A program made the translations under genes and the position numbers. A DNA stretch of 64,000 nucleotides, taken from assembly GCA_964016885.1 (NCBI GenBank), contig OZ024746.1, forward strand, positions 46,686,001-46,750,000, read 5' to 3'. Source of the DNA: Eledone cirrhosa (Eukaryota). Numbering within the stretch: the first letter of the stretch is position 1; every line of letters begins with the position of its first letter. The notes under the pieces were generated by a model. That model saw only the letters and a program-made list of their open reading frames with translations. It searched no databases and was not told the origin of the DNA. Shown here in pieces: positions 1,338 to 15,680 of this stretch.

Positions 1338-3705
1338 AATATAGACATAGAATATTCGAAAATATTCTGTATGTTTATAATAAACATTTTGAAGACCTAA
1401 TCGCTATAGAATAGAATACGTCACGTATTACAATTAGATTCTCGATAAAAGCAAGGGAAGTAATCTACGCGTTTCATTCTCGTTAGAAATCATCAGGACT
1501 ACATATCCAGTGCTTTTATCGAGAATGACACAGCTAGAGACTTATAGAATACTTAGCTGTGTACAGGAACTGGTTTGAAAGAGCGGTTGCCGGTCCGGCA
1601 GAAATTAGAAATTGGAATAAATGCTCTGAAATAGCGATATATATGTGAATATAGACATAGAATATTCGAAAATATTCTGTATGTTTATAATAAACATTTT
1701 GAAGACCTAATCGCTATAGAATAGAATACGTCACGTATTACAATTAGATTCTCGATAAAAGCAAGGGAAGTAATCTACGCGTTTCATTCTCGTTAGAAGT
1801 CATCAGGACTACATATCCAGTGCTTTTATCGAGAATGACACAGCTAGAGACTTATAGAATACTTAGCTGTGTACAGGAACTGGTTTGAAAGAGCGGTTGC
1901 CGGTCCGGCAGAAATTAGAAATTGGAATAAATGCTCTGAAATAGCGATATATATGTGAATATAGACATAGAATATTCGAAAATATTCTGTATGTTTATAA
2001 TAAACATTTTGAAGACCTAATCGCTATAGAATAGAATACGTCACGTATTACAATTAGATTCTCGATAAAAGCAAGGGAAGTAATCTACGTGTTTCATTCT
2101 CGTTAGAAATCATCAGGACTACATATCCAGTGCTTTTATCGAGAATGACACAGCTAGAGACTTATAGAATACTTAGCTGTGTACAGGAACTGGTTTGAAA
2201 GAGCGGTTGCCGGTCCGGCAGAAATTAGAAATTGGAATAAATGCTCTGAAATAGCGATATATATGTGAATATAGACATAGAATATTCGAAAATATTCTGT
2301 ATGTTTATAATAAACATTTTGAAGACCTAATCGCTATAGAATAGAATACGTCACGTATTACAATTAGATTCTCGATAAAAGCAAGGGAAGTAATCTACGC
2401 GTTTCATTCTCGTTAGAAATCATCAGGACTACATATCCAGTGCTTTTATCGAGAATGACACAGCTAGAGACTTATAGAATACTTAGCTGTGTACAGGAAC
2501 TGGTTTGAAAGAGCGGTTGCCGGTCCGGCAGAAATTAGAAATTGGAATAAATGCTCTGAAATAGCGATATATATGTGAATATAGACATAGAATATTCGAA
2601 AATATTCTGTATGTTTATAATAAACATTTTGAAGACCTAATCGCTATAGAATAGAATACGTCACGTATTACAATTAGATTCTCGATAAAAGCAAGGGAAG
2701 TAATCTACGCGTTTCATTCTCGTTAGAAGTCATCAGGACTACATATCCAGTGCTTTTATCGAGAATGACACAGCTAGAGACTTATAGAATACTTAGCTGT
2801 GTACAGGAACTGGTTTGAAAGAGCGGTTGCCGGTCCGGCAGAAATTAGAAATTGGAATAAATGCTCTGAAATAGCGATATATATGTGAATATAGACATAG
2901 AATATTCGAAAATATTCTGTATGTTTATAATAAACATTTTGAAGACCTAATCGCTATAGAATAGAATACGTCACGTATTACAATTAGATTCTCGATAAAA
3001 GCAAGGGAAGTAATCTACGTGTTTCATTCTCGTTAGAAATCATCAGGACTACATATCCAGTGCTTTTATCGAGAATGACACAGCTAGAGACTTATAGAAT
3101 ACTTAGCTGTGTACAGGAACTGGTTTGAAAGAGCGGTTGCCGGTCCGGCAGAAATTAGAAATTGGAATAAATGCTCTGAAATAGCGATATATATGTGAAT
3201 ATAGACATAGAATATTCGAAAATATTCTGTATGTTTATAATAAACATTTTGAAGACCTAATCGCTATAGAATAGAATACGTCACGTATTACAATTAGATT
3301 CTCGATAAAAGCAAGGGAAGTAATCTACGCGTTTCATTCTCGTTAGAAATCATCAGGACTACATATCCAGTGCTTTTATCGAGAATGACACAGCTAGAGA
3401 CTTATAGAATACTTAGCTGTGTACAGGAACTGGTTTGAAAGAGCGGTTGCCGGTCCGGCAGAAATTAGAAATTGGAATAAATGCTCTGAAATAGCGATAT
3501 ATATGTGAATATAGACATAGAATATTCGAAAATATTCTGTATGTTTATAATAAACATTTTGAAGACCTAATCGCTATAGAATAGAATACGTCACGTATTA
3601 CAATTAGATTCTCGATAAAAGCAAGGGAAGTAATCTACGCGTTTCATTCTCGTTAGAAATCATCAGGACTACATATCCAGTGCTTTTATCGAGAATGACA
3701 CAGCT
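1338..3705 (-). repeat. 310-bp tandem array, left block (~7.6 units, hammerhead sense on minus strand)
   Basis: TAAACATTTTGAAGACC recurs at 1381, 1691, 2001 etc.; reverse-complement HHR core CATCAGGACT at 1491, 1801, 2111, 2421, 2731, 3041, 3351, 3661. Confidence 0.97.
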
Positions 3706-6700
3706 TTTATCGAGAATCTAATTGTAATACGTGACGTATTCTATTCTATAGCGATTAGGTCTTCAAAATGTTTATTATAAACATACAGAATATTTTCGAA
3801 TATTCTATGTCTATATTCACATATATATCGCTATTTCAGAGCATTTATTCCAATTTCTAATTTCTGCCGGACCGGCAACCGCTCTTTCAAACCAGTTCCT
3901 GTACACAGCTAAGTATTCTATAAGTCTCTAGCTGTGTCATTCTCGATAAAAGCACTGGATATGTAGTCCTGATGATTTCTAACGAGAATGAAACGCGTAG
4001 ATTACTTCCCTTGCTTTTATCGAGAATCTAATTGTAATACGTGACGTATTCTATTCTATAGCGATTAGGTCTTCAAAATGTTTATTATAAACATACAGAA
4101 TATTTTCGAATATTCTATGTCTATATTCACATATATATCGCTATTTCAGAGCATTTATTCCAATTTCTAATTTCTGCCGGACCGGCAACCGCTCTTTCAA
4201 ACCAGTTCCTGTACACAGCTAAGTATTCTATAAGTCTCTAGCTGTGTCATTCTCGATAAAAGCACTGGATATGTAGTCCTGATGATTTCTAACGAGAATG
4301 AAACGCGTAGATTACTTCCCTTGCTTTTATCGAGAATCTAATTGTAATACGTGACGTATTCTATTCTATAGCGATTAGGTCTTCAAAATGTTTATTATAA
4401 ACATACAGAATATTTTCGAATATTCTATGTCTATATTCACATATATATCGCTATTTCAGAGCATTTATTCCAATTTCTAATTTCTGCCGGACCGGCAACC
4501 GCTCTTTCAAACCAGTTCCTGTACACAGCTAAGTATTCTATAAGTCTCTAGCTGTGTCATTCTCGATAAAAGCACTGGATATGTAGTCCTGATGATTTCT
4601 AACGAGAATGAAACGCGTAGATTACTTCCCTTGCTTTTATCGAGAATCTAATTGTAATACGTGACGTATTCTATTCTATAGCGATTAGGTCTTCAAAATG
4701 TTTATTATAAACATACAGAATATTTTCGAATATTCTATGTCTATATTCACATATATATCGCTATTTCAGAGCATTTATTCCAATTTCTAATTTCTGCCGG
4801 ACCGGCAACCGCTCTTTCAAACCAGTTCCTGTACACAGCTAAGTATTCTATAAGTCTCTAGCTGTGTCATTCTCGATAAAAGCACTGGATATGTAGTCCT
4901 GATGATTTCTAACGAGAATGAAACGCGTAGATTACTTCCCTTGCTTTTATCGAGAATCTAATTGTAATACGTGACGTATTCTATTCTATAGCGATTAGGT
5001 CTTCAAAATGTTTATTATAAACATACAGAATATTTTCGAATATTCTATGTCTATATTCACATATATATCGCTATTTCAGAGCATTTATTCCAATTTCTAA
5101 TTTCTGCCGGACCGGCAACCGCTCTTTCAAACCAGTTCCTGTACACAGCTAAGTATTCTATAAGTCTCTAGCTGTGTCATTCTCGATAAAAGCACTGGAT
5201 ATGTAGTCCTGATGATTTCTAACGAGAATGAAACGCGTAGATTACTTCCCTTGCTTTTATCGAGAATCTAATTGTAATACGTGACGTATTCTATTCTATA
5301 GCGATTAGGTCTTCAAAATGTTTATTATAAACATACAGAATATTTTCGAATATTCTATGTCTATATTCACATATATATCGCTATTTCAGAGCATTTATTC
5401 CAATTTCTAATTTCTGCCGGACCGGCAACCGCTCTTTCAAACCAGTTCCTGTACACAGCTAAGTATTCTATAAGTCTCTAGCTGTGTCATTCTCGATAAA
5501 AGCACTGGATATGTAGTCCTGATGATTTCTAACGAGAATGAAACGCGTAGATTACTTCCCTTGCTTTTATCGAGAATCTAATTGTAATACGTGACGTATT
5601 CTATTCTATAGCGATTAGGTCTTCAAAATGTTTATTATAAACATACAGAATATTTTCGAATATTCTATGTCTATATTCACATATATATCGCTATTTCAGA
5701 GCATTTATTCCAATTTCTAATTTCTGCCGGACCGGCAACCGCTCTTTCAAACCAGTTCCTGTACACAGCTAAGTATTCTATAAGTCTCTAGCTGTGTCAT
5801 TCTCGATAAAAGCACTGGATATGTAGTCCTGATGATTTCTAACGAGAATGAAACGCGTAGATTACTTCCCTTGCTTTTATCGAGAATCTAATTGTAATAC
5901 GTGACGTATTCTATTCTATAGCGATTAGGTCTTCAAAATGTTTATTATAAACATACAGAATATTTTCGAATATTCTATGTCTATATTCACATATATATCG
6001 CTATTTCAGAGCATTTATTCCAATTTCTAATTTCTGCCGGACCGGCAACCGCTCTTTCAAACCAGTTCCTGTACACAGCTAAGTATTCTATAAGTCTCTA
6101 GCTGTGTCATTCTCGATAAAAGCACTGGATATGTAGTCCTGATGATTTCTAACGAGAATGAAACGCGTAGATTACTTCCCTTGCTTTTATCGAGAATCTA
6201 ATTGTAATACGTGACGTATTCTATTCTATAGCGATTAGGTCTTCAAAATGTTTATTATAAACATACAGAATATTTTCGAATATTCTATGTCTATATTCAC
6301 ATATATATCGCTATTTCAGAGCATTTATTCCAATTTCTAATTTCTGCCGGACCGGCAACCGCTCTTTCAAACCAGTTCCTGTACACAGCTAAGTATTCTA
6401 TAAGTCTCTAGCTGTGTCATTCTCGATAAAAGCACTGGATATGTAGTCCTGATGATTTCTAACGAGAATGAAACGCGTAGATTACTTCCCTTGCTTTTAT
6501 CGAGAATCTAATTGTAATACGTGACGTATTCTATTCTATAGCGATTAGGTCTTCAAAATGTTTATTATAAACATACAGAATATTTTCGAATATTCTATGT
6601 CTATATTCACATATATATCGCTATTTCAGAGCATTTATTCCAATTTCTAATTTCTGCCGGACCGGCAACCGCTCTTTCAAACCAGTTCCTGTACACAGCT

Positions 6701-6960
6701 AAGTATTCTATAAGTCTCTAGCTGTGTCATTCTCGATAAAAGCACTGGATATGTAGTCCTGATGATTTCTAACGAGAATGAAACGCGTAGATTACTTCCC
6801 TTGCTTTTATCGAGAATCTAATTGTAATACGTGACGTATTCTATTCTATAGCGATTAGGTCTTCAAAATGTTTATTATAAACATACAGAATATTTTCGAA
6901 TATTCTATGTCTATATTCACATATATATCGCTATTTCAGAGCATTTATTCCAATTTCTAA
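3703..6960 (+). repeat. 310-bp tandem array, right block (~10.5 units, inverted relative to the left block)
   Basis: Reverse complement of the left-block unit; ATGTAGTCCTGATGA at 3961 + n*310 up to 6751 (10 copies). Confidence 0.97.
3957..4009 (+). ncRNA. Minimal type I hammerhead ribozyme (representative of 18 copies in the array)
   Basis: Stem I GUAGUC/GAUUAC, extended by GGA/UCC; core CUGAUGA 3969-3975; stem II UUCU-AACG-AGAA closed by U.U; GAAAC 3990-3994; palindromic helix III ACGCGU; GUA cleavage triplet ending at 3999. Confidence 0.88.
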
Positions 6961-15144: not shown

Positions 15145-15190
15145 AACACCACTGACGATGTTGCAGATGTGCAACGAAAGATTTATGTAA
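15145..15190 (+). ncRNA. pLTR hammerhead-like motif, plus-strand copy
   Basis: CTGACGA 15152-15158, GAAA 15176-15179, putative cleavage after A15185, about 190 nt upstream of the ATG at 15375. Confidence 0.6.
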
Positions 15191-15399
15191 ACTATATATA
15201 TATGTGTTTGTCTATATTGTATCTGTATTATTTTTGACCGCCGGTCAGTCAATGGCAACATTGAGGACCGAGTAAGTTAGATCGCAGATATATATATATA
15301 AAAGACAGCGAGAAGCGAAAACCAACCAAACAGTGAGTGTGTTCTGTTATTAATTCTGGCAATATTACGCAAATATGACCCTCCCCAAATATAACAATA

Positions 15400-15680
15400 T
15401 ATATACATATATATATACATATATATATATATACATATATATATACATATATATATATACATATATATATATATATATATATATACATATATATATACAT
15501 ATATATATATATACATATATATATATATATATACATATATATATATACATATATATATACATATATATATACATATATATATAAATATACATATATATAT
15601 ATATATATATATATATATATATATATATATATATATATATATACATATATATATACATATATATATACATATATATATAC
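15400..15680. repeat. (TA)n/CA microsatellite
   Basis: Directly visible. Confidence 0.95.

Follow-up and report, generated by a model that had tools for sequence, protein, structure and literature searches.

Background

Metazoan non-long terminal repeat (non-LTR) retrozymes have been proposed to be copied from a circular template, with Penelope-like elements (PLEs) named as strong candidate helpers (PMC7229834, Cervera and de la Pena 2020). Li, Clavereau and Pollet (2026, bioRxiv 10.64898/2026.07.22.740005) argued from co-occurrence and from homology to the pseudo-LTR (pLTR) of PLEs that retrozymes use PLE machinery, and left the mechanism open. The hallmark of PLE insertions is an inverted, 5'-truncated copy, often with a tail of 30-40 bp at one end (PMC8557442, Craig et al. 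2021), and the anole element PAc Poseidon cuts and extends both strands of an AT-rich target in vitro, with two internal starts of reverse transcription in the 5' region of the open reading frame (ORF) bounding the tail (PMC11167929, Frangieh et al. 2024). In this study, we analysed a window of 64,000 nucleotides (nt) from Eledone cirrhosa (assembly GCA_964016885.1, contig OZ024746.1, positions 46,686,001 to 46,750,000; positions below are counted from its first letter), in which an array of 310-nt hammerhead units lies beside a PLE. We propose that the array is a gene-less retrozyme inserted in the PLE manner into a (TA)n tract, as two inverted arms of which one has a short end and the other a long end, and that it was likely copied in trans by the reverse transcriptase (RT) and endonuclease (EN) of a Neptune-like PLE.

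The 310-nt retrozyme resembles those described previously in its tandem units (170-400 nt in PMC7229834), type I hammerhead, low GC content and lack of an ORF, and it shares the U-U at the base of stem II with the axolotl HHR_Amex2 of the same paper. It differs in the two inverted arms, the (TA)n target and the fixed short and long ends, none of which appears in the portion of PMC7229834 at hand; expression and circles were demonstrated for the retrozymes of that paper, whereas for ours they are predicted. The enzyme that moves retrozymes has so far been argued from co-occurrence and pLTR similarity; the text of the 2026 preprint, as far as available, holds no analysis of insertion ends, while here pLTR homology is absent and the insertion footprint forms the link. 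Non-autonomous Chlamys elements such as MRC1 are likewise PLE passengers with multicopy head-to-tail insertions, but their 3' end is generally like that of the autonomous partner and their group is without canonical hammerheads (PMC8557442). Inverted insertions with short and long ends were not found reported for any retrozyme in the literature covered, which did not extend to the supplements of PMC7229834 and of the preprint or to the early papers on Penelope structure. Mobilisation of retrozymes by PLEs has thus been proposed before, and the end signature of the retrozyme is a new and strong genomic footprint of it: it is present in all two-armed retrozyme insertions read, without extended homology to PLEs, in a genome that encodes two young, intact PLE proteins.

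Results and discussion

Structure of the retrozyme array

The array at 1338-6961 consists of two diverging arms, minus then plus. The left arm (1338..3705, minus strand) comprises 7.6 units of 310 nt with 4 mismatches in total and has its 3' end at unit position 128, the short end, when unit positions are numbered from the predicted hammerhead cut. The right arm (3703..6961, plus strand) comprises 10.5 units with 0 mismatches and ends at unit position 172, the long end. The arms meet 5' to 5' at unit positions 241 and 14 over a 3-nt microhomology, GCT (3703..3705); this overlap and the opposite hammerhead sense of the two arms had been reported in a preliminary description of the window and were confirmed. 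The stretch between the short and long ends, termed the tail, is present at the right end only (6918..6961, plus strand) and contains a 17-mer retained by older subfamilies.

A type I hammerhead core with three stems was found in all full units, with its sense on the minus strand in the left arm and on the plus strand in the right arm. In the example at 3963..4005 (plus strand; predicted cleavage 3' of 3999), a stem I of 6 bp, prolonged by a long helix, is combined with a CUGAUGA core, a U-U and 4-bp stem II, GAAA, and a palindromic 2-bp stem III. The 86-nt hammerhead region folds with z = -6.15, and the Rfam search of the array gave 0 matches at the gathering score. Within the array there is neither an ATG-initiated ORF of at least 150 amino acids (aa) nor an LTR structure (no separate search for a primer-binding site or polypurine tract was made), and we classify it as a non-LTR retrozyme without a gene of its own, the transcripts of which are predicted to cleave themselves and to form 310-nt circles. 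The array's only four mismatches (1799, 2090, 2729 and 3020) represent two variants within the hammerhead, both of which recur at 930 nt (3 units) and are absent from the third expected place; this spacing may reflect a trimer template, a template switch or a later duplication.

The array is flanked on the left by a (TA)n tract with CA interruptions (1..1337), which begins about 550 nt upstream of the window, and a middle stretch of the same tract (6962..8110), whose interruptions are oriented as in both outer flanks, separates it from the PLE, beyond which the right stretch follows (15401..15681). As described earlier, all four 3' ends of the two elements enter the (TA)n/CA tract; retrozyme and PLE adjoin because both struck one TA tract of about 3.3 kb.

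Genome-wide survey of retrozyme insertions

The family was counted by exact sequence patterns and BLAST was used for the arm ends. An internal 35-mer of the unit had 4085 exact matches in the genome, the first 100 of which fell into 10 loci, and 9 of these 10 were inverted, minus then plus. On the forward strand, which was used since overlapping matches inflated the reverse-strand counts, the TA-flanked end patterns gave 614 short and 802 long matches. With 37 further regions taken from the lists of TA-flanked ends, 49 loci including the window were examined; all except the window come from a single contig and lie within its first 78 Mb. Among them, 41 were inverted and two-armed (40 with both ends read and 1 with the second end beyond the fetched stretch) and 8 were single-armed (6 short and 2 long), including one that abuts unreadable sequence and one, L147, with an 11-nt possible remnant of the long end.

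In all 40 two-armed loci with both ends read, one arm ended at about 128-139 and the other at about 163-172, both into TA-rich sequence, so that the two 3' ends are 35-44 nt apart. In 30 of these 40 loci the first end had been selected for and the second had not; with a random choice of end for each arm, 40 of 40 would be expected with a probability of about 1e-12. The preliminary description had overlooked that within an insertion each arm has a fixed end point of its own, one short and one long. The 41 arm junctions, by BLAST ends, comprise 24 overlaps of 1-6 nt, 4 blunt joints, 2 longer overlaps and 11 inserts. L161 is counted among the inserts, and its 184-nt gap proved to be a BLAST artefact. 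At L154, 272 nt of unrelated GC-rich sequence (1499-1770) lie between the arms, either a captured template or a later insertion. Asymmetric interruptions in the flanks keep one orientation across the insertion (clear in 8 loci, by our own reading), which indicates that the TA tract is older than the insertion.

Older subfamilies use the same two ends. A degraded relative with about 72% identity at 18757-19240, belonging to a subfamily with units of about 320 nt and a different stem II, is inverted in TA tracts with the long end on the left and the short end on the right. At 33186-34215 a second retrozyme-like family was found (units of about 426-453 nt, 2593 exact matches), which has two ends of its own, separated by about 60 nt, and of which several copies are short/long inversions.

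The PLE in the window and its protein

The element at 8111-15400, here called PLE1, has the features of a young Neptune-like PLE. Its left arm (8111..13315, minus strand) contains a partial tandem copy (12015-13315, minus strand; 1 mismatch in 1301) and one full unit of 3904 nt, and has its 3' end at ATG+82 to +85 (long end), whereas the inverted and 5'-truncated right arm (13313..15400, plus strand; 4 mismatches in 2088) ends at ATG+24 to +26 (short end). The 5'-to-5' junction with the microhomology GAC (13313..13315) was confirmed as described earlier. The tail (8111..8169, minus strand), corresponding to ORF nt +27 to +85, is present at the left end only. A hammerhead-like core lies in the 3' untranslated region (8385..8418, minus strand), with further copies at 12289-12322 (minus strand) and 15152-15185 (plus strand). 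The core and stem II of this hammerhead are recognisable; stem I has only about 2 bp in register, by eye, and the fold is not better than that of shuffled sequences (z = -0.79). A young 220-nt PLE1 copy at 34270-34489 begins at most 2 nt from the predicted hammerhead cut and may be a single hint of PLE ribozyme cleavage.

The ORF (8689..12099, minus strand) encodes 1136 aa with an N-terminal domain, an Asn-rich linker, an RT, a CX4CXXC motif and a GIY-YIG-type nuclease (YVDD at 752, CTNRKCIIC at 1003, VVY at 1024 and YIG at 1042); the cysteines internal to the nuclease motifs (VVY..C..C..YIG), as in the CCHH type, were read directly. Pfam analysis of the whole ORF returned 0 families: the RVT_1 match (E 6.7e-5) was below the cutoff, and GIY-YIG gave no match to the protein itself and matched its homolog P0102 (E 6.6e-7). 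A search of solved structures gave weak matches to bacterial RTs only (E 0.03-0.09), and the closest named protein is from Octopus vulgaris (69% identity). The full ORF of the family encodes 1210 aa, so that the copy in the window, formerly called intact, is open but 74 aa shorter, the loss lying within the Asn-rich linker.

With the nuclease motifs at the C-terminus, the N-terminal endonuclease of Naiad and Chlamys is absent, and the partial tandem copy forming a pLTR, the inverted 5'-truncated copy and the one-end tail place PLE1 among endonuclease-bearing (EN+) PLEs. We assign it provisionally as Neptune-like on the CX2-5CxxC motif between RT and EN, which Neptune and Nematis have in common. 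As in Neptune and Nematis, an RT is combined with a C-terminal GIY-YIG domain and a CX2-5CxxC linker, a hammerhead-like core in the pLTR, tandem and inverted copies, a tail at one end and a microsatellite target; PLE1 differs in its long Asn-rich linker and in a tail of about 45-60 nt, compared with the quoted 30-40 bp (PMC8557442).

PLE families with the same insertion footprint

The hammerhead of PLE1 had 5051 exact matches in the genome, and its 3' ends cluster at ATG+19 to +26 or at ATG+67 to +85. We read both ends of 21 inverted PLE1 insertions (the window, L058, L065, L067/068, L069-071 and 14 further loci; two more loci with a single resolved end are not counted, and the outer ends of the L272-274 arrays were read in part), and 19 of the 21 were short/long. 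A sister family, PLE2, is represented in the window by a short inverted copy within TA tracts (56930-57505; long end left, short end right). It has 7919 exact hammerhead matches and an intact ORF of 1318 aa that is 65% identical to PLE1 over RT-EN, and its inverted insertions, in the same TA target as those of PLE1, were short/long in 15 of 15 cases. This pairing is near-strict, compared with a tail 'often at one end' in PMC8557442. At one position (G000:C1:55778492) the PLE2 RT match lies within an open frame of 2189 aa, the usual being about 1280.

Over 200 nt, the two arms of an insertion were identical in 8 of 13 PLE1 loci (10% across loci) and in 5 of 13 PLE2 loci (0% across loci). Three tandem PLE1 units at L270/L271 are 99.9% alike and have one frameshift before the RT in common, which would result from copying of a defective RNA in trans or from duplication of the unit once inserted. 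At 34615-35935 an inverted copy with a GIY-YIG fragment represents a third, old PLE family, whose copies have two ends about 70 nt apart; this family was considered as a present helper and judged unlikely, its best other copy being 89% identical and its frames broken.

Template and proposed mechanism

The two fixed ends of the retrozyme would most simply represent two sites at which a PLE enzyme starts reverse transcription, because they match the inverted copies and tail of PLEs as well as the starts mapped for PAc (PMC11167929). The study of PAc used the element's own RNA and no foreign or circular RNA, and in the text at hand it found no difference in start between the strands and no homology at the starts; here, the ends have AT/TA in common with the target, and each arm uses a different one of the two starts.

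Arm haplotypes matched in 33 of the 34 loci with at least 15 common diagnostic sites (7 of the 41 inverted loci had too few), as against 135 of 1122 cross-locus pairs (12%), and there were 17 haplotypes among the 34 loci, each uniform inside its locus. Within 142 kb, we called 81 locus-fixed variants (8 of them locus-private), 12 of intermediate frequency and 66 singletons; the 8 private variants were fixed in all units covered (up to 18), 7 of them in both arms. The longest arm extends over 8459 nt (27 units), with medians of 3.6-4.8 units, and only 2 of 89 retrozyme 5' junctions lie near the ribozyme cut. Taken together, the matching haplotypes, the long arms and the junctions independent of the cut argue for twin priming on one RNA, for which we consider a circle fairly probable; matching arms would also arise if a single source locus were active per cell. 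Sequencing runs X1 and X2 each yielded one 340-nt contig of the unit, which fits a circle and a tandem array alike. Unit position 276 (UAG in stem I) carries an A-to-G change at L159, L162, L138, L156 and L160, fixed in 3 of these and mixed in 2, and A-to-G accounts for 6 of 20 distinct locus-fixed variants compared with 1 T-to-C, which may weakly hint that the template RNA is edited by ADAR.

In the proposed mechanism, retrozyme transcripts would cut themselves and circularise as a 310-nt RNA. A PLE protein, supplied by the window PLE or by its sister family, either being possible, would bind this RNA close to the tail segment and nick a (TA)n tract on both strands. Each DNA 3' end would then prime on the same RNA at its own site, one short and one long, both reverse transcriptases would travel round the circle several times, and the two cDNA ends would finally pair over 1-6 nt and complete each other. 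A broader version, in which PLEs generally use such two-site twin priming on one circular RNA and an unrelated 310-nt circle hijacks it through a small hairpin-plus-tail signal, is offered tentatively, at slightly under even chances. If it were true, the tandem and inverted structure of PLEs and the retrozyme arrays of animals would result from one reaction, with the 310-nt circle as a minimal substrate. With the start sites that the footprint predicts, its target, a substrate of 310 nt and two enzymes as candidates, the hypothesis is directly testable, and the short/long pairing together with the common arm haplotype constrains how tandem and inverted PLE insertions form, a question described as unsolved in PMC8557442.

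Candidate signals in and near the tail

Three possible recognition signals were considered. The word ATTTCA[GT]A is unique within PLE1, PLE2 and the retrozyme unit and lies between both ends in each. Its synonymous conservation (10 of 12 codons, P 0.03) is matched elsewhere in the ORF, and by eye the second retrozyme family and the third PLE family lack the word in their tails; as a common signal it was rejected as weak, since the P of 0.046 was obtained post hoc and 11 of 141 other PLE2 windows contained words at least as long. The hairpin that precedes the short end of the retrozyme, with compensatory changes in older subfamilies, is a suggestive candidate: in 7 related sequences 54 of 56 cells were paired with 2 compensatory pairs, and 23 of 500 shuffles scored as high. 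The tail 17-mer, which the search itself selected for, has 5263 matches outside the young subfamily and is intact also in the old copy of the window; like the hairpin, it can serve as a lead.

Weighing of the alternative explanations

Several points weigh against copying of circles in trans by a PLE enzyme. The circle, the cleavage and the trans-mobilisation are all deduced from DNA sequence. Between the retrozyme and the PLEs tested no extended homology was found, as already noted for the window pair in the preliminary description and in contrast to the Xenopus retrozymes described in the 2026 preprint; nor was a retrozyme-PLE chimera seen in 2 junction gaps or at the 5' side of the 8 loci with one arm. 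At 35-44 nt, the retrozyme tail does not reach the length of the main PLE tail of about 58-60 nt, 2 of the 21 PLE1 insertions (L069 and L268) are long/long, and in the 38 of 49 loci that were chosen through one TA-flanked end the TA flank at that end is built in. The anole PLE used unprocessed RNA in vitro and did not need ribozyme cleavage (PMC11167929), and in one array, L159, units further along an arm carry another base at one site, so that more than one template is possible.

The last two points, together with the 930-nt variant repeat in the left arm of the window, would fit an enzyme that copied long linear read-through transcripts of existing arrays, mixed multimers included, rather than circles, unprocessed RNA having been the main substrate of the anole PLE. 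We regard this as unlikely, because locus-uniform haplotypes and private variants fixed over as many as 18 units require that the sequence passed through one unit, and because linear copying could not lengthen an array although arms reach 27 units. Twin priming by L1 also yields 5'-to-5' inversions with microhomology, its second primer being placed at variable internal sites beside the break of the first arm. Ordinary twin priming by a LINE-type (long interspersed nuclear element) RT thus deserves consideration, the more so as LINE-like RT ORFs are present in the window and LINEs are listed as possible retrozyme helpers (PMC7229834); it is very improbable given that both retrozyme starts are fixed and complementary and mirror the tail rule of PLEs, that there is no poly(A) end and that the target is (TA)n as for PLEs. 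An ordinary satellite with inversions at the DNA level, or a fold-back artefact of assembly, would agree with the fact that no record in four sequencing runs spans the exact retrozyme junction of the window, and the 2026 preprint also permits local tandem amplification. This explanation has hardly any credit left: 41 of the 49 loci are inverted rather than one-directional satellites without TA flanks, their 41 junctions occupy scattered, non-mirrored positions, the interruptions in the flanks are oriented alike on both sides of the insertion, short-read contigs of run X3 hold 7 other arm-strand joints and TA loose ends, and fixed short and long ends at dispersed loci are not expected from unequal crossing-over. 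With inversion, microhomology, TA target and the short/long rule recurring genome-wide, there is good support for the earlier proposal that the array is the product of a PLE RT/GIY-YIG machine, and mobilisation by some PLE enzyme is in our judgement highly probable.

Which PLE supplied the enzyme is less clear. The window elements had been presented as a possible autonomous/non-autonomous pair: the PLE-type footprint holds, but PLE2 leaves the same one, and we give the PLE1 family an even chance of being the partner. In its favour, 150 of 150 scored RT copies among the matches listed, within three contigs, are 100% identical to the window copy, the nearest-neighbour distance was zero in 13 of 26 cases for PLE1 and 4 of 23 for PLE2, its minor long end yields a tail of 43-47 nt, near the length of that of the retrozyme, and its short end is preceded by a hairpin-like segment, ATATT..AATAT, that resembles, by eye, the one in the retrozyme. 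The same mechanism with an enzyme from PLE2, from both families or from an unsampled one has a somewhat smaller but substantial probability. PLE2 has 7919 exact hammerhead matches, an intact ORF, the same target and the strict short/long pairing, 98 of its 150 scored RT copies are 100% identical, that is, equally young, and the longest word common to the tails of retrozyme and PLE is an 8-mer with PLE2 (shuffle P 0.046) and a 6-mer with PLE1 (P 0.80), the 8-mer test being post hoc. Adjacency, which had been taken as evidence for the pair, did not stand: PLE ends occur near retrozyme loci at 0.43 per 10 kb (7 in 164 kb) compared with 0.31-1.04 in four controls, so that no enrichment was found in the flanks, and one other direct retrozyme-PLE neighbour was seen (L035).

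Other sequences beside the TA tracts

Directly past the TA tract, a fragment of another RT with PLE-like motifs, by eye, lies at 15682-15930, and a single hammerhead-bearing piece is located between TA tracts at 58140-58320.

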